A DNA stretch of 64,000 nt from Verrucomicrobiia bacterium (GTDB taxonomy: Bacteria; Verrucomicrobiota; Verrucomicrobiia; Limisphaerales; UBA11358), in contig DASXYX010000026.1 in assembly GCA_036502245.1 (NCBI GenBank), positions 8,575 to 72,574 of the forward strand. Direction: 5' to 3'. The position numbers were made by a program, and so were the translations under genes. Shown here piece after piece: positions 27,227 through 32,899 of the stretch. The notes below the pieces were generated by a model that saw nothing but the letters and a program-made list of their open reading frames with translations, was not told the DNA's origin and did not search any database. Every line of letters begins with the position of its first letter. Within the stretch, counting starts at the first letter, position 1.

Positions 27227-27937
27227 TTATTTCTCGTCGAGAAAGGCGCTGATTTTCTTCCGCAATTCCTTGGTGACGGAATTGATGGACCGATTGGCGT
27301 CCACAACCTCGAAATTATAGTTCTTTTGCAGCTTCACAAACGCTTCGGCCATGGCCGTCTGATATTTTAGGAAGCTGTCGAACACGTCGCGGGAGAGGCC
27401 GAGGTCCATGCCGCTTTCCCAGTAATCGAGCGTCGCGTTTTTTGAAAGATTGCGCTGCACCAATTCCTCCGGTTCGACCGAGAGATAGAAAACAGCGTCC
27501 GGCACCAGGGCGATGCCATAGAGATTTTTGAGCCATTTTTCGTCCATCCCCCTCACGAGATCCCGGGCCATAAGAGTATGGATATAGCGGTCCGCCAGGA
27601 CGATGAACCCCGCTTTGAGTGCGGGAAGGATCATGTTTTCAAGTTGATCGGCAAAGTCCGTGGCGTAGAAAAGGCTCAAGGTGGTGCGACTAAGAATGTT
27701 TCCCTGCTGCGCTTCTTCGAGTTCTTTGCTGACCAGGGTGGAGCGTTTCAAACCGACCTGCACGGTTGGGTGACCGCTGGTCTCCAGCCAATCCACCAAT
27801 TGCGCGATCTGCGACGACCGACCGGAACCGTCCGCTCCTTCCACGACGAAGAATTTGCCTTCCAATTCCTCCGGTTTCACCCGGGGGATACCATGGCCGA
27901 AAAACTTCCGGCATTTTTTTGGTTCAGAATTTTTCAT
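27227..27937 (-). CDS. thymidylate-kinase-like protein with a degenerate P-loop
   Basis: Tmk-like layout (VVEGADGSGRSSQ, LADRYIHT). Walker A reads GSGRSS, so the invariant Lys is Arg (codon CGG at 27818-27820). It is a paralog of the upstream gene. Confidence 0.65.
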   Translation of the reverse strand: MKNSEPKKCRKFFGHGIPRVKPEELEGKFFVVEGADGSGRSSQIAQLVDWLETSGHPTVQVGLKRSTLVSKELEEAQQGNILSRTTLSLFYATDFADQLENMILPALKAGFIVLADRYIHTLMARDLVRGMDEKWLKNLYGIALVPDAVFYLSVEPEELVQRNLSKNATLDYWESGMDLGLSRDVFDSFLKYQTAMAEAFVKLQKNYNFEVVDANRSINSVTKELRKKISAFLDEK

Positions 27938-28719
27938 ACGGCGGCTAAATCCTCATCGTGTTCTTTGACGTCGCTCTGCCATGCCGGGGGAAGAGGCAAG
28001 GGCGTTTTGCGTTTGAATTTTTTCAAGTCAATTTTCTCGCTGACCAGTTTGCGTACCAGCACCTGTTGTTTTTCAACGTTTTGGTTCGCATCCATGACGA
28101 TAAAATTGAATTCAGCGCTCATGGCCATATACTGGTCAAGGATTCGACCCTGGAAAATCTTGAAACTTTCATACGGATCGGTCGAGAGGCGCAGATCCAT
28201 GCCGGCTTCGAAGAATTTCAGTTTGGGGCGGCCTTCCAGGATGCGGTTCAACGAGACATCCAGGTCGGCTTTGAAGAAGATGGTCATGTCCGGCTGGGCA
28301 GCAAAACCATAAAGCCCGCGCACCCAATCCGGAGGGCAGCCGCGGGTGACATCGCGCGCGAAGGCGGTGAATGCGTAACGGTCGCACAATACGATGTAGC
28401 CCGCGCGCAAGAGCGGGAGAAGATGGCGTTCATAGCGGTCGGCGAAATCGGTAGCGTGAATGAGGCTGAACGTGGTAGGCGTGAGCAACTCGCGTTTTTT
28501 ACCCTTGCTCGTGGCCGATTTGACCAGTTCGGAAGAATTCCACTCGCTGAAATAGACCTTGATGCCTTCGGCCTCGAGCCAGCGTTTGAGCAGATAAATT
28601 TGCGTGGACTTGCCCGAGCCATCGAGTCCTTCGACGGCGATGAGCCGGCCCGGAAAGTTCAATTCTGAAAAAGTTTTCATAATATTGCCAACGACGTTTT
28701 GTGATTCTAACAAAGACAC
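27934..28719 (-). CDS. thymidylate-kinase-like protein (intact P-loop)
   Basis: AVEGLDGSGKSTQ P-loop and LCDRYAFT (DRY motif). ATGA overlap with the downstream paralog. An alternative start is ATG 28680 (MKTF). Confidence 0.7.
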   Translation of the reverse strand: MSLLESQNVVGNIMKTFSELNFPGRLIAVEGLDGSGKSTQIYLLKRWLEAEGIKVYFSEWNSSELVKSATSKGKKRELLTPTTFSLIHATDFADRYERHLLPLLRAGYIVLCDRYAFTAFARDVTRGCPPDWVRGLYGFAAQPDMTIFFKADLDVSLNRILEGRPKLKFFEAGMDLRLSTDPYESFKIFQGRILDQYMAMSAEFNFIVMDANQNVEKQQVLVRKLVSEKIDLKKFKRKTPLPLPPAWQSDVKEHDEDLAAV

Positions 28720-29108
28720 CGCTGGTCACAAGCGCAACTTAATAGCATGGATCAGGCTCCCGGCATTGTTAAATTTGGGTTAAACCTGCTAATAGGCTGA
28801 TTTTCACAAGATTGCTTGTCCGTGCGGATTCTACATATGAATGCGAAGAGACAAGCATTGCATTGTCGTCAAAGTTCCGTCCTAGCGGGAACGGCTTGAT
28901 GCTGAATGCCTTGCCCCTTGCCAATCACGAGAACGCTTGCACCTCTGCTGCCAACGTGTTAAACGAAATCGCAGTTGTCCGGTTTGGGAACTATTGCATG
29001 ACGATATGGACGCATGAGGACAGGAAGTGGACACAAAAATGCGACGTTACAAACTCGGCTAAATTTTCAGCGACAGATGAAACACGGATTGAACACATAT
29101 TTTAAAAA

Positions 29109-29834
29109 ATGACTTGGTCTCCAATTCAACCTAAAAATTCCAGTGACAAAGTTTGGAGATATTTGGATTTGCCAAAGTTCGTTTATCTGTTGAATTCAAA
29201 AAAACTGTATTTCCCCAGTGCTGAACGATTGGAAGATAAACACGAAGGTTCGATTTTTCTATTTCAAAAAGAAATAGAACTAAGAGAAATGACCGAAACA
29301 AGATTGGCGAATTTGCTTCCTATTTTATCTGACATGCGACGAGAGCAACTTAAGTGCACTTTTATTAGTTGCTGGCACAGGAATAATTCAGATTCCCAGG
29401 CGATGTGGAAGATTTTTTGCGGAGAAAAGCAGGGGGTAGCTATGGTGACGAGTTATCAAAAGCTTGCCAGTTGTGTGAATCTGAATTTGTATGTCATAGG
29501 ATGCGTTGCTTACGATAATTCCGACCCATTACCAAATAATCTTATTGCTCCATTTATGCAAAAACGTAAGGCATTTGCATATGAGCAGGAGGTGCGGATC
29601 ATAGCTAATCTTTACACTTCTCCTGATTTCCGAGATAAGAATGGACAATTTTGCCCGACACGGGAACATCTCGCGCTTCCAATTGATTTAGCAAAATTGA
29701 TTGAAACAATTTACGTTCATCCCGATGCAGATAGACTTTACTTCCAAATAATTGAATCGCTGGTTTCAAAATATGCTCCAAAACTCAAAGACAGAGTAAA
29801 ATGGTCTGAAATGAAGGCTCTGCCCGGATATTAA
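29109..29834 (+). CDS. DUF2971-like protein
   Basis: VWRYLDLPKFVYLLNSKKLYFPSAERLEDKHEGS at the N-terminus, then ISCWHRNNSDSQAMWKIF...GVAMV and AYEQEVRII, matching my recollection of the DUF2971 layout. Visibly lower GC than the flanks. Confidence 0.5.
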   Translation: MTWSPIQPKNSSDKVWRYLDLPKFVYLLNSKKLYFPSAERLEDKHEGSIFLFQKEIELREMTETRLANLLPILSDMRREQLKCTFISCWHRNNSDSQAMWKIFCGEKQGVAMVTSYQKLASCVNLNLYVIGCVAYDNSDPLPNNLIAPFMQKRKAFAYEQEVRIIANLYTSPDFRDKNGQFCPTREHLALPIDLAKLIETIYVHPDADRLYFQIIESLVSKYAPKLKDRVKWSEMKALPGY

Positions 29835-29851
29835 ATTAGCTTTCAATCCAT

Positions 29852-30718
29852 GTGTTTAATGTTTTGAAAAATAATCGTGACAATGCGCTGGTTCCGAAAC
29901 CGTCAGGTGCGGTCGAAAAAGCTGCACTCGGCAGGAAACACATTTTGTCTCGCATGGTCACTGATGCATTAGACCTCGCAAGAAAAATATCGAATAACGA
30001 GGTTAAAGCAACAAATGCGCAGTTAGAAGATTGGTTTCAGACAGGAGAAAAATACAGATATGGACAAGGTGTGCCACAGAGTTACACAGAAGCGGTAAAA
30101 TGGTTTCGTATGGCTGCGGAGAAAGGTTATGTGAAGGCGCAATATTCGCTTGGTAGTTGCTACCTGTTTGGCGATTTTTTAAACGGAGTGCCAAAAAACG
30201 AAACTGAAGCCGTAAAATGGTTCCGCAAAGCGGCGGGGCAAGGTTACGCATATGCTCAAGTCGCTCTCGGCTATCGCTATTATGCAGGCGAAGGTGTAGA
30301 GCAAGATTATGTAACGGCAGCAAAGTGGTATCGCAAAGCGGCAGATCAAAATAATGCTCTTGCTCAAACCAGGCTTGGCAGCTGCTATTATGAAGGCGTG
30401 GGTATACCGCAAGATTATGCGGAAGCATTAAAATGGTGGAGCAAGGCTGCCAAACAAAATTATGTTGAGGCGCAATATTTTCTTGGCCGCTGCTATCAAA
30501 ATGGACAAGGAATCTCGCCGGATACCATTGAAGCATACAAATTCTATAAATTAGCGGCGGGACAGAGAAATGTGACAACTGCAAGCGTGGAACATAGTTG
30601 TAAAGCTGCTGCAGAGAATCTGAAACAAATCGTGGCACAAATGACTGCTGACGAAATCGCCGAAGGAGAACGTCGTTTTCGTGAGTCTAATATCTCAAAA
30701 CTTGAACCAAGCCAATAA
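29852..30718 (+). CDS. Sel1-repeat (SLR/TPR-like) protein
   Basis: Five repeats of about 36 aa of the type EAVKWFRKAAGQGYAYAQVALGYRYYAGEGV. GTG start, with a roughly 60-aa non-repeat N-terminal region. Confidence 0.8.
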   Translation: MFNVLKNNRDNALVPKPSGAVEKAALGRKHILSRMVTDALDLARKISNNEVKATNAQLEDWFQTGEKYRYGQGVPQSYTEAVKWFRMAAEKGYVKAQYSLGSCYLFGDFLNGVPKNETEAVKWFRKAAGQGYAYAQVALGYRYYAGEGVEQDYVTAAKWYRKAADQNNALAQTRLGSCYYEGVGIPQDYAEALKWWSKAAKQNYVEAQYFLGRCYQNGQGISPDTIEAYKFYKLAAGQRNVTTASVEHSCKAAAENLKQIVAQMTADEIAEGERRFRESNISKLEPSQ

Positions 30719-31346
30719 ATCCAACGGATTTGAATTAGTCTGGAAGCCGTCTGACGCAATTGAAAAAGCTGCGCCTGGCGCGCGAAATGTTTTGTTGGGC
30801 ATAGTGCTTGATGCCCTCGCATCGGCTAAAAAACAATCGCTTTCAGAACGAACATTATCTGTATTGATCGGTGGTAATTTAGATGCCTGCCTTGACCATC
30901 TTTTCTTGGACCAGATTTTGGAGGCGACACAAAAGGAAATCAATATCGAGATAATACATACCGAAGCGATTGACGAAATAATGTCTGTAGTCGCAAAACG
31001 GAAATTTGATCTAGCCCTTTTGTATTTGGATTTTTTCCGAAAGGACCACGAGTTTGGATATACTCAACGAGATCGCCAATATGAATTTTCTGACAACCAA
31101 ACAATTTTGCGTCGAGCTGATTTACTCCAGCGCGAAAATGTGAGAATTACCAACAGCGGATTTGTATTAATAAGCTTTTTGTCCAAGATGCATGGAATTC
31201 CTGTTGTTGTATTGACGGGAAGCGGCTATCAGGGGGTGCAAACGGAAGCCAAGCAGGCAGGTGCCAGCGCCTTTTTTCCAATACCATTTGCCGATTCACA
31301 ATTGGTTGAAAGTCTGCGTGAAATTTTTCTTAAACAAAACAAATGA
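30681..31346 (+). CDS. hypothetical protein with a degenerate receiver-like (pseudo-REC) fold
   Basis: FDLALLYLD, IPVVVLTGSG and ASAFFPIPF resemble REC beta3, beta4 and beta5. The N-terminal acidic pair and the conserved Lys appear to be missing. Start is uncertain (GTG 30681 or TTG 30702). It overlaps the Sel1 gene's end. Confidence 0.4.
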   Translation: MSLISQNLNQANKSNGFELVWKPSDAIEKAAPGARNVLLGIVLDALASAKKQSLSERTLSVLIGGNLDACLDHLFLDQILEATQKEINIEIIHTEAIDEIMSVVAKRKFDLALLYLDFFRKDHEFGYTQRDRQYEFSDNQTILRRADLLQRENVRITNSGFVLISFLSKMHGIPVVVLTGSGYQGVQTEAKQAGASAFFPIPFADSQLVESLREIFLKQNK

Positions 31347-32164
31347 AATCGGCATCTCCAATTATTTATTCCAGCCCAGAGTTGGAGAAATTGCGTCAGC
31401 TTGTGGCGAACTCGCGTTCGCAGGTGGCGGAATTGGAAGTTGAATTTGCAAAAGAAAAGTCGCGCGTGAATGCAATGCAGGCGGCGTTATTCCGGCGCTT
31501 GTGCGAATATTATCAAAAGCGCGACCGACTACGAATCACATTAGATTATCGAAAGAAATTTTTAGAATCGCTCGAACGCAAAGATTCGGCGGCAGCGCAG
31601 CAAGCTGAACAAAATTTCGAGCAGGCCAAAGCGCAATCAGACAAGGATTACGAAGATTTAGCGGCGGCAGCGGAGAAAAAGAGACAACTGTCCGCCGAAC
31701 AGGAAGCGGAACTAATGCGGCTCTGGAAAAAGTTGGTGAAGCTGTATCATCCCGACCGTTTCGCGCAAGAGCCGGATAAATTGGAAACATATCACAAACT
31801 GACGGCGGCCATCAATCAGGCAAAGGATAATGGCGATATTGAGTCCTTGCGAGAAATTGCGGAAGACCCGGAAGGTTTTATATTGCGTCAAGGCTGGACG
31901 ATTTTGGATTTAAAGGACGAGGAAGAATTGCCGCAATTGAGAAAATTATACGAGGCGTTGCAAAAGGAAATTTTGACACTCACTGAAGCGTTGAAAGTGT
32001 TACGCGCCAGTCCAGATTATGAGCTTTGCCAGCTTATGGAACAGAAGCCGGGAATTTTGGATGAACTTGCGGCGGAACGCGCGAAGCAGCTTGAAATTGA
32101 AAATGCAGAATTGGAATCGCAGGCAAGTCAATTGGAAAAAGAAATTTCAGATAGAAAAATTTAA
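31343..32164 (+). CDS. J-domain (DnaJ-like) coiled-coil protein
   Basis: LMRLWKKLVKLYHPDRFAQEPDKLETYHKLTAAINQAKDNGD contains the HPD tripeptide (31748-31756). Long heptad-like E/K/Q/A-rich segments flank it. ATGA overlap with the previous gene. Confidence 0.65.
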   Translation: MKSASPIIYSSPELEKLRQLVANSRSQVAELEVEFAKEKSRVNAMQAALFRRLCEYYQKRDRLRITLDYRKKFLESLERKDSAAAQQAEQNFEQAKAQSDKDYEDLAAAAEKKRQLSAEQEAELMRLWKKLVKLYHPDRFAQEPDKLETYHKLTAAINQAKDNGDIESLREIAEDPEGFILRQGWTILDLKDEEELPQLRKLYEALQKEILTLTEALKVLRASPDYELCQLMEQKPGILDELAAERAKQLEIENAELESQASQLEKEISDRKI

Positions 32165-32238: not shown

Positions 32239-32550
32239 ATGAGTGTTGCCGAATTGCCCATTCAGATCAACCGCGAGCAGGTTGCGCATTTTTGCCGGGA
32301 ACGCGGCATACGCAAATTGAGCCTCTTCGGTTCGGTATTGCATGACGATTTTGACCCACAGCGCAGTGATGTGGACGTGTTGGCGGAATTTGAGCCGGGC
32401 GCTCTGAAAAAAGCGGGCTTCCAATACTTCGGCTATGGTGAGGAACTGGCGGCCATCATCGGGCGCAAGGTGGATTTCTGTTCACGGCTGCATCCGCTGA
32501 TTTTTGATCGCATCAAGGACGAATTATTTCCCGTGTATGAGCGCGCGTGA
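32239..32550 (+). CDS. nucleotidyltransferase (MNT/MntA-type antitoxin)
   Basis: LSLFGSVLHDDFDPQRSDVDVLAEF carries the GS...DxD minimal NTase motif. Confidence 0.8.
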   Translation: MSVAELPIQINREQVAHFCRERGIRKLSLFGSVLHDDFDPQRSDVDVLAEFEPGALKKAGFQYFGYGEELAAIIGRKVDFCSRLHPLIFDRIKDELFPVYERA

Positions 32551-32899
32551 TGCCGACGTGACACTGCGGCAAATCGTCGAGGTTTGCGACAAAGCTATTG
32601 AATTGCGGAATACGACGACGTGGGAGGAGTTTCACAACGACTGGCGCAAGCAGATGTTGGGTGAGCGATTGGTAGAAGTCCTGGGTGAAGCTGTAAAACG
32701 CCTGCCGGATGACTTGCGCCAGCGGCATCCGCAGTTGCCCTGGCAAAAGATTGCCAGCACACGGAATTATATCGCTCATGGTTATGACAGTGTGGATTAT
32801 GAAGTGATTTGGGGTGTGCTTGATGTTGAAGCAAGCAAGTTGAAGGCATCCGTGCTCACAATTCTTGCCAAGGAATTTCCCGAGTCGCCCAAACGGTAA
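32537..32899 (+). CDS. HEPN-domain (DUF86/HepT-type) toxin
   Basis: Rx4H motif RNYIAH followed by GYD. It overlaps the MNT gene's end, and the start at ATG 32537 was chosen within the tracked ORF. Confidence 0.8.
   Translation: MSARDADVTLRQIVEVCDKAIELRNTTTWEEFHNDWRKQMLGERLVEVLGEAVKRLPDDLRQRHPQLPWQKIASTRNYIAHGYDSVDYEVIWGVLDVEASKLKASVLTILAKEFPESPKR

Follow-up and report, generated by a model that had tools for sequence, protein, structure and literature searches.

J-domain proteins recruit Hsp70 to particular clients and stimulate its ATPase there. In the HscB–IscU–HscA system, where HscB is a dedicated J-protein of class C and HscA a specialised Hsp70, the J-domain of HscB is joined to a helical client-binding domain, and HscB presents IscU to HscA, which recognises the IscU segment LPPVK; extended segments of hydrophobic, basic and proline residues are the kind bound by Hsp70s in general. 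Toxin-antitoxin-chaperone (TAC) systems hold in one operon a conserved SecB-like chaperone, interchangeable toxins and a type II antitoxin whose short C-terminal chaperone addiction (ChAD) tag binds it to the chaperone, and in the E. coli ybeQ-ybeR-djlB / ybeT-ybeU-djlC-hscC locus Sel1-repeat genes adjoin class C J-protein genes. Chaperones are also found in prokaryotic conflict systems: Kaur et al. 2020 (PMC7159879) described systems with Hsp70, DnaJ, tetratricopeptide repeats (TPR) and adaptor tags, one subtype of which has Hsp70, GrpE, and DnaJ- or TPR-fused proteins, and bNACHT25 requires DnaJ, and a host J-protein can mediate phage sensing (PMC12169576). The DUF2971 protein Aristaios of Lactococcus is a validated single-gene abortive-infection (Abi) system with an ADP-ribosyltransferase-like predicted fold (PMC11381338). 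Here we analysed four adjacent genes, g1 to g4, in a 64,000-nucleotide stretch of the genome of a Verrucomicrobiia bacterium (assembly GCA_036502245.1, contig DASXYX010000026.1, positions 8,575 to 72,574), which is called the window below. The four genes encode a DUF2971 protein, a Sel1-repeat protein, a degenerate receiver and a J-domain protein; the locus resembles a dedicated J-protein/client pair and follows TAC and Kaur-type logic, yet it belongs to none of these systems, and its defining new features are an N-terminal tag and a J-domain hub.

The four genes form an operon, which is one copy of a recurring, previously undescribed module of Verrucomicrobiota. We are confident of the architecture of this module, namely a J-domain protein as the hub (g4 in the window), one to three partners carrying the tag (g2 and g3), and an optional, swappable front gene (g1). 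About 100 loci encoding g4 relatives were compared (89 of them non-redundant), and linkage of the tag was counted over the 77 loci with 700 nt or more upstream of the hub. An open reading frame (ORF) positive for the hidden Markov model (HMM) of the tag ends at most 200 nt from the hub start in 62 of the 77 loci, and 24 of the junctions are 4-nt overlaps; 50 of the 62 loci have one tagged gene, 11 have two, and one has three. The 15 misses are mostly proteins clipped by contig ends or divergent tags. The original prediction was a four-gene system of undescribed type, and it made its case hang on synteny elsewhere. The order of Sel1 or receiver gene followed by J gene does recur in Verrucomicrobiota, in dozens of loci whose flanks differ, including a locus (L005) whose order of Sel1, pseudo-receiver and J is identical to that of the window. 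The system is also undescribed: no PADLOC model matches g2–g4, and our literature search found no paper describing the combination of J, Sel1, receiver and exonuclease, and nothing relevant on PDC-S31 (the PADLOC family matched by g1). It is not, however, a fixed set of four, as the core consists of the tagged partner(s) and the J gene, while g1 is one of many interchangeable front genes in a slot that is empty at some loci.

The cassette in the window (Table 1) is tightly packed. The co-directional, closely joined ORFs that had been reported were confirmed together with their coordinates, with a 17-nt gap between g1 and g2, a 38-nt overlap between g2 and g3, and the ATGA overlap between g3 and g4 at 31343-31346. 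The real starts of g2 and g3 are probably TTG codons at 29864 (which lines up with the Met of g2 relatives) and 30702 (which lines up with the Met of the L005 orthologue of g3), in which case the gap would be 29 nt and the g2/g3 overlap 17 nt; the tight packing of g1–g4 holds whichever starts are used. The four domain calls (DUF2971, five Sel1 repeats, degenerate receiver, and J-domain with HPD motif) were likewise supported, by profile scans, alignments and an AlphaFold2 (AF2) model of g4. Two features had been overlooked, namely the tag shared by g2 and g3, and a form of g4 that is fused to an exonuclease.

Table 1. Coordinates of the genes, domains and neighbouring pair in the window (aa, amino acids)
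Feature	Position	Strand	Remarks
g1	29109-29834	+	DUF2971 / PDC-S31 front gene ('U-slot'); from ORF list
g2	29852-30718	+	Tagged partner, Sel1-repeat type; from ORF list
Tag of g2	29882-29986	+	Residues 11-45, NALVPKPSGAVEKAALGRKHILSRMVTDALDLARK; tag HMM E=2e-20 (g2)
Sel1 repeat array of g2	30023-30571	+	Approximate limits; 5 Pfam stretches; DNA repeat family D1 at 30068-30475
g3	30681-31346	+	Tagged partner, pseudo-receiver type; from ORF list
Tag of g3	30729-30833	+	Residues 17-51, FELVWKPSDAIEKAAPGARNVLLGIVLDALASAKK; tag HMM E=1e-20 (g3)
Degenerate receiver-like domain of g3	30849-31331	+	About 45-aa insertion after beta3
g4	31343-32164	+	Short-form J-domain protein, conserved hub; from ORF list
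N-terminal long helical hairpin of g4	31376-31675	+	Residues 12-111; conserved save at tip
J-domain of g4	31694-31864	+	Helix II, HPD, helix III, helix IV; HPD codons 31748-31756
MNT/HepT toxin-antitoxin pair	32239-32899	+	Independent neighbour
MNT	32239-32550	+	NTP_transf_2, 30.8 bits (Pfam)
HepT	32504-32899	+	HepT-like, 72.1 bits (Pfam); RNYIAH present (RX4H motif)

The GC profile bears out the AT-rich stretch noticed by eye: the 1-kb bins covering 29-32 kb (GC of 0.392, 0.445 and 0.449) rank lowest among all 64 of the window, where the remaining bins average about 0.54 and the next lowest has 0.474. On a finer scale the low-GC trough extends from about 28.55 to 32.3 kb, with its minimum (0.36-0.41) over g1. 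The hub gene of the window is itself AT-rich (0.46 vs 0.54), which is unusual among hub copies and suggests that the whole cassette was derived from a lower-GC relative. The low-GC island stands for the cassette of the window, but the low-GC hub is peculiar to this copy; at other loci AT-richness is limited to the partner genes, and in 33 of 34 loci the tagged genes exceed their flanks in AT content, by 7.5 points on average. The low GC of the whole cassette, together with the wide plasmid transfer of g1 homologues, is what could be said for a chance adjacency of four unrelated genes in a horizontally acquired AT-rich island. The probability of this explanation is close to nil, and the synteny data already refute it: partner(s) and J follow one another in this order in 62 of 77 loci whose flanks are unrelated, the tag is common to g2 and g3, and a DUF2971 front gene is present in seven loci.

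The tag is a previously undescribed sequence of about 35 aa at the N-terminus of the partners, with the consensus MNEKNxFALV(R/P)(K/R)P(S/P)(S/G)A(V/L)EKA(A/E)PGAKRILSGMVADTLALAKK (MNEKNxFALVRKPSSAVEKAAPGAKRILSGMVADTLALAKK in single-letter form). In its first half (FALVRKPSS or FALVPRPPG) a hydrophobic core precedes basic and proline residues, and its second half is a hydrophobic amphipathic helix. All tag matches in the compared locus DNA fall in hub clusters, with the sole exception of a decayed locus (L101), where the J gene is gone and the tag is kept only as a 51-aa ORF. Codon entropy in the tag is 1.24 at the third position, 0.73 at the first and 0.51 at the second; this free third-position variation indicates selection on the peptide and not on a DNA site, and we rejected the tag as a recombination site or leader DNA element for the same reason. 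Tag and hub diverge jointly: hubs at 51%, 50% and 43% identity (L013, L106 and L108) are preceded by leucine-rich repeat (LRR) or Sel1 proteins with a diverged, recognisable tag, and no tag was found upstream of hubs at about 31% identity or from an organism of 67% GC. The exclusive, translationally coupled pairing, the conservation at the peptide level and the joint divergence together argue for a stable hub–partner pair in which the tag would be the recognition element. We note that the tag also occurs alone. The mini-ORF of L101 (6001-6156) adjoins ParE, DUF4926 and HI1420-type genes; another tag-only mini-ORF (L100:6001-6165) is flanked by a tagged receiver gene and the hub; and the only matches of the tag profile in a database search were 22 short tag-alone ORFs of 44-73 aa (P0273-P0294), a result that is biased by candidate selection and is no census.

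Behind the tag, the 76 tagged partners carry Sel1 repeats (52), Response_reg (23) and LRR (6) domains, and TPR too. The Sel1 repeats of g2 (PF08238, five copies) score 177.5 bits, above threshold. For g3, the match to Response_reg (PF00072) has 20.1 bits (E=7.6e-4), is confined to profile positions 56-110 and stays below the 30.2-bit cutoff; a FixJ model gives E=1.2e-5, and the receiver match covers residues 125-217. When g3 is aligned with CheY, the DD pair is replaced by GG, the D57 column has Y (with a D two residues on) and K109 is replaced by I, while T87 is kept. The AF2 model of g3 (three sequences, predicted local distance difference test (pLDDT) score of 40) has an alternating beta/alpha pattern and is unreliable; on the alignments, 'degenerate receiver' is a fair description of g3. 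Only three database relatives of g3 were found, and its type of receiver domain is also seen in L005, L071, L006 and L099. The receivers of other partners include canonical-looking ones as well as degenerate ones like that of g3, and those of L078 and L052 look phosphorylatable from their residues.

One locus has a partner of another kind. In L007 (965-1321, +) the partner slot is taken by a 118-aa protein consisting only of an Hsp70 substrate-binding beta domain (PF00012 positions 407-518, E=2e-24), which overlaps the J start at 1318 and has neither a tag nor an upstream nucleotide-binding domain; this single case ties the hub to Hsp70 biology. Two further loci show unusual arrangements. L099 (3188-8193) is a second module on the same contig as L002, about 45 kb apart, beside a tyrosine integrase, a helix-turn-helix gene and a gene for an MqsA-like antitoxin; three receiver-like domains (pseudo, canonical and pseudo) are present in its tagged partner, and a separate DUF6804 membrane gene follows its hub. 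L013 (2833-10026, hub 51% identical) has in order a group II intron reverse transcriptase, SIR2_2, an LRR protein with a diverged tag and the hub, after which come a 371-aa protein containing ankyrin and a second J protein of the canonical kind, with DnaJ at its N-terminus, a membrane segment, and Sel1 repeats at its C-terminus.

The J-domain signature of the hub is invariant, with H136, P137 and D138 as well as K129, K130 and K133 of the basic helix II found in all of 54 g4 homologues. The AF2 model of g4 is all-helical (pLDDT of 81), and its helices at residues 118-135, 144-162 and 166-174 match the placement expected of helix II, HPD, helix III and helix IV; hhalign of g4 against a J-domain alignment gave a probability of 84% (E=7.5e-6) across helix II, HPD and helix III. 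In the model the HPD of g4 thus lies between antiparallel helices II and III, as in a J-domain, and g4 would be expected to stimulate the ATPase of an Hsp70 partner. Hits of relatives to DnaJ in Pfam also support the J-domain, and the remainder of g4 is made up of long, conserved helices. A Foldseek search of the whole g4 model against the PDB gave generic long-helix matches only, none at E<=1e-3. The N-terminal helical hairpin of g4 is a candidate docking surface for the tag. As originally reported, there is no Hsp70 gene: neither the window nor any of the first 97 related loci encodes an Hsp70 nucleotide-binding domain, and host DnaK must therefore be the motor.

In databases the g4 family comprises more than 870 clusters at 70-79% identity, and those with a name come nearly always from metagenome-assembled genomes (MAGs) of Verrucomicrobiota; an exhaustive search gave 640 clusters at the 50% level with identities down to about 26%. 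The hub occurs in a short form, as in the window (48 of the 89 non-redundant loci), and in a long form of about 550 aa (33 of the 89). The N-terminal half of the long form is a DEDDh (DnaQ-like) exonuclease (RNase_T, E=5e-14), with DnaQ and Cas2-DEDDh as its closest solved relatives, and it retains the DxE...D...H..D motifs plus an FGKHKG segment (L055-L097 and L100; e.g. L060:6164-7834). The exonuclease-J fusions explain why JGI annotations use the label 'DNA polymerase III epsilon', for short forms too. Some short-form hubs carry DUF6804 (four transmembrane helices) or are followed by a DUF6804 gene; this membrane segment is absent from the hub of the window and from most short forms. A phage origin of g4 was considered and is unsupported, as no g4 relative was found among the viral contigs of IMG/VR.

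Several outlying matches to the hub were also seen. A 391-aa 'DnaJ family molecular chaperone' of Salmonella (L104; NZ_CP149222.1, 10283-11458), encoded between pheP and rclC, has a weak tblastn match to g4 (29.7% identity, E=1e-3) over residues 112-268, so that the match extends past the J-domain into the C-terminal helices. L102 (6001-14316) encodes a distant, high-GC relative of 771 aa (DUF7662, exonuclease and J) that is surrounded by IS66 and three integrase genes, with AddB/AddA-like nuclease-helicase genes after it; no tagged partner was found at this locus. In L015 and L017, from a MAG labelled Akkermansia muciniphila, the hub matches are fragmentary and frame-broken, and may be pseudogenes or a binning artefact.

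The slot in front of the partners is hypervariable. In 40 loci the first tagged partner is preceded by a co-directional front gene at a distance of at most 100 nt (and never more than 55 nt), many of them with 4-nt overlaps; almost all of these genes are singletons unrelated to each other. DUF2971 occupies the slot in seven loci (the window, L060, L067, L087, L078, L009 and L100), and these genes belong to deeply divergent subgroups found with both hub forms. Other recognisable types are SIR2_2 (twice), DUF4238, PIN_2, AbiU2-HEPN and RES. When both groups are counted by one set of criteria, toxin or defence types make up about 12 of 55 front-slot genes as compared to about 9 of 125 outer neighbours (odds ratio of 3.6, p=0.007), a moderate enrichment given crude gene calls and loci that are phylogenetically non-independent; the outer neighbours are mostly housekeeping genes, with a few toxin-antitoxin or mobile genes. 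This front-slot content strengthens the case for defence or conflict. Two module neighbours with trypsin-like catalytic motifs (CAHC or TAAHV ... GMSGGP or GMSGSG), L108:3109-3891 and L005:5947-6879 (-), had no match in a Pfam scan and may represent another effector type.

In the window the front gene g1 scores 24 bits against DUF2971 (PF11185; cutoff of 22) and matches PDC-S31, which PADLOC lists as a candidate single-gene system, with E=3e-17 over residues 6-238 of 241; a PDB sequence search with g1 gave no match. Its homology makes g1 a candidate toxic or abortive-infection effector, single-gene Abi activity having been shown for the Lactococcus protein alone. Relatives of g1 at about 30% identity are found on plasmids of Bacillus, Bradyrhizobium and haloarchaea, one of them in a defence island where DUF4238, HipA and an Abi gene adjoin and no J or Sel1 gene is nearby. 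g1 thus resembles Aristaios and PDC-S31 in its matches to DUF2971 and to the full-length PDC-S31 profile and in having relatives in plasmid defence islands; unlike those autonomous single genes, it heads an operon with tagged partners and a hub, in a slot that is open to unrelated toxins.

Our preferred reading, to which we give a probability of about 0.5, is a chaperone-gated conflict module: the hub docks tagged adaptors, hands them to host Hsp70 and thereby gates a toxic effector. The helical bundle of the hub would bind the amphipathic second half of the tag (KRILSGMVADTLALAKK), and its HPD J-domain would load DnaK onto the extended first half FALVRKPSS, as HscB presents IscU to HscA. The tagged partners would contribute ligand- or signal-binding domains (Sel1/TPR, LRR, and canonical or degenerate receivers) behind the tag, and the front gene would be drawn from a general pool of stand-alone toxin and abortive-infection genes. 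Hsp70 would hold or remodel the adaptors, which in turn would restrain or activate the front-gene effector or the fused exonuclease, and the effector would be freed when chaperone capacity is lost (during infection or stress) or when the repeat or receiver domain receives a ligand or a phosphoryl signal. Taken separately, a client relationship linking hub, tag and Hsp70 is slightly favoured by the evidence, and a function in defence or conflict falls a little short of even odds. Given the sensor-type repeat and receiver domains, the Abi or toxin genes in the front slot and the nuclease of the long form, a role in conflict or defence is nevertheless the most economical reading.

The client part of this scheme has its closest parallel in HscB–IscU–HscA. 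There too, a J-domain is joined to a helical client-binding domain, the surroundings of the HPD are alike (YHPDRFA in g4, YHPDKFA in HscB), and FALV(R/P)(K/R)P in the tag would correspond to the short, conserved, proline-containing segment of IscU that Hsp70 recognises. The module differs in having no sequence homology beyond the J-domain, many different clients with one tag, no linked dedicated Hsp70, and toxin-type genes in the operon. The tag could instead be a localisation or export signal, the J protein, which is anchored in the membrane in some lineages, using Hsp70 to bring tagged proteins to the membrane or export them from the cytoplasm; the four-helix DUF6804 domain that some hubs carry or precede would fit this, as would the frequent envelope association or secretion of Sel1 and LRR proteins. 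With a hub in the window, and most short forms, that have no membrane segment, with receiver domains and a fused DEDDh exonuclease that are cytoplasmic functions, and with no secretion genes linked at the loci, we regard an export role as very improbable.

The interchangeable toxins bring the module close to TAC systems, which also combine a conserved chaperone-related gene, a short tag that binds a partner to the chaperone, and swappable toxin families in one operon. By analogy, and as a narrower version of the chaperone-gated reading, the front gene would be a toxin and the tagged partner its antitoxin, destabilised by the tag unless protected by the J protein and Hsp70. The layout agrees with this, and TAC systems can defend against phage (10.1101/2024.02.24.581848). 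The module, however, would borrow host Hsp70 through a J co-chaperone where TAC has a SecB-like holdase (Pfam and NCBIfam scans of g1–g4 gave no SecB-like domain), it has its tag at the N-terminus of Sel1, LRR or receiver proteins where the ChAD is C-terminal on the antitoxin, its partners are large repeat or receiver proteins and not small DNA-binding antitoxins, and its toxin slot is optional, so that loci can hold two or three partners and no toxin. A TAC analogue in the strict sense is therefore unlikely.

Several observations weigh against the chaperone-gated reading. The front-slot enrichment is only moderate, as said above, and the front gene is missing in about 30% of loci; the short-form loci L005, L018 and L020, which have no front gene, have no obvious effector either, so that the core must work without one. 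DUF2971 relatives act as single genes elsewhere, on plasmids without a J or Sel1 partner. The hub looks like a core gene, being 70-79% identical over many MAGs, mostly located between housekeeping genes, and roughly equal in GC to its flanks in other loci. The J-domain itself scores low in Pfam: g4 has 18.7 bits against DnaJ (PF00226; E=1.9e-3), below the gathering threshold of 27.8 bits, and the best-scoring relative tested (P0161) has 27.6 bits; a few relatives have precomputed PF00226 hits.

With the exception of the Pfam scores, these points, together with the housekeeping character of the outer neighbours and the phosphorylatable look of some partner receivers (L078 and L052), would fit a housekeeping or regulatory chaperone adaptor, at whose operon 5' end autonomous defence or toxin genes merely accumulate. 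Such an adaptor might serve lineage-specific proteostasis or signalling, with Hsp70 targeted to complexes, to DNA transactions (exonuclease form) or to the membrane (DUF6804); we consider both the general idea and this more detailed form of it possible, at a chance well below even. Mere accumulation does not readily fit the frequent coupling of front genes to the first partner by 4-nt overlaps or the recurrence of deeply divergent DUF2971 genes in the slot with both hub forms, and a housekeeping role does not readily fit the hypervariable partner genes, with their multiplication inside loci and an AT content above that of the flanks in 33 of 34 loci, or a second module copy that adjoins an integrase. 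Beyond the chaperone-gated conflict module as set out above, one may speculate on a bacterial immune platform of a new class, in which the J hub wires host Hsp70 to tagged sensors (Sel1, TPR, LRR and receiver) that license interchangeable Abi effectors, with chaperone availability or ligands as the infection signal; we hold this extension to be doubtful. Its effectors might be DUF2971, SIR2, PIN, HEPN, RES or the fused DEDDh exonuclease, and this list is as tentative as the platform itself.

In its general logic the module is also similar to the Kaur-type systems: both are built around a chaperone or co-chaperone, with effectors that vary, sensors of the repeat type, and short adaptors that link the products of neighbouring genes. 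It differs from these systems and from bNACHT25 in having no MoxR/vWA, GTPase, STAND or NACHT NTPase; and as compared to the Kaur-type systems its tag is not duplicated on the hub, Hsp70 is not encoded at the locus, and the lineage is that of Verrucomicrobiota. The E. coli locus that had been named as a precedent for a Sel1 and J partnership does exist, with each J gene overlapping the preceding gene by 4 nt, but the parallel is thematic only. The Sel1 genes are divergently oriented there, a DUF1266 partner and the Hsp70 paralogue HscC are present that the module does not have, and there is no shared N-terminal tag. We rejected homology of g4 with DjlC and of g3 with YbeU, as no sequence similarity was detectable; with no linked Hsp70 and no membrane segment in g4 either, the locus is not of the HscC/DjlB/DjlC type, and the module shows no homology to DjlB/DjlC or YbeR/YbeU.

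The surroundings of the cassette were also inspected. On the left are two tandem Thymidylate_kin genes (27227-28719, -; 236 and 261 aa, with a 4-nt overlap), both matching PF02223 at about E=1e-20, and the right flank includes a GT2 glycosyltransferase gene; these flanking genes had been named correctly, but the supposed 'flippase' had no match in a Pfam scan. A 97-aa ORF (28812-29105, +) within the low-GC stretch stops 3 nt before the start codon of g1 and had no match in a Pfam scan; it is a candidate leader gene or remnant. No notable flanking direct or inverted repeats and no adjoining tRNA or integrase were found at the island edges in the window, a promoter and terminator scan of the region gave a result no better than shuffled sequence, and an Rfam scan had no match in the region. 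The MNT/HepT pair was found where it had been reported, 74 nt downstream of g4, but it does not travel with the module: MNT/HepT genes do not recur downstream of the J genes at the other hub loci. The two genes overlap by 47 nt and have the features of a type VII system (a nucleotidyltransferase antitoxin and a HepT RNase with RX4H, encoded by overlapping genes), with a PADLOC match to PDC-S09 and scores that do not reach the NCBIfam equivalog cutoffs. Their GC of 0.49-0.55 is near the genome value. The pair is an independent toxin-antitoxin neighbour outside the module.

If the chaperone-gated reading is true, the module would represent a modular coupling of the general Hsp70 machine to many sensors by one short tag, controlling toxic effectors, and would define a portable pair of 35-residue tag and hub. 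It would also give a natural regulatory context to the DUF2971 (Aristaios) family, which is validated but mechanistically opaque, and a system found across the little-studied phylum Verrucomicrobiota would join the small set of chaperone-dependent defences (TAC and bNACHT25-DnaJ). Even if its function is not defensive, a tag-specified family of J-protein clients that numbers in the hundreds would add a new case of client selection by J-proteins.

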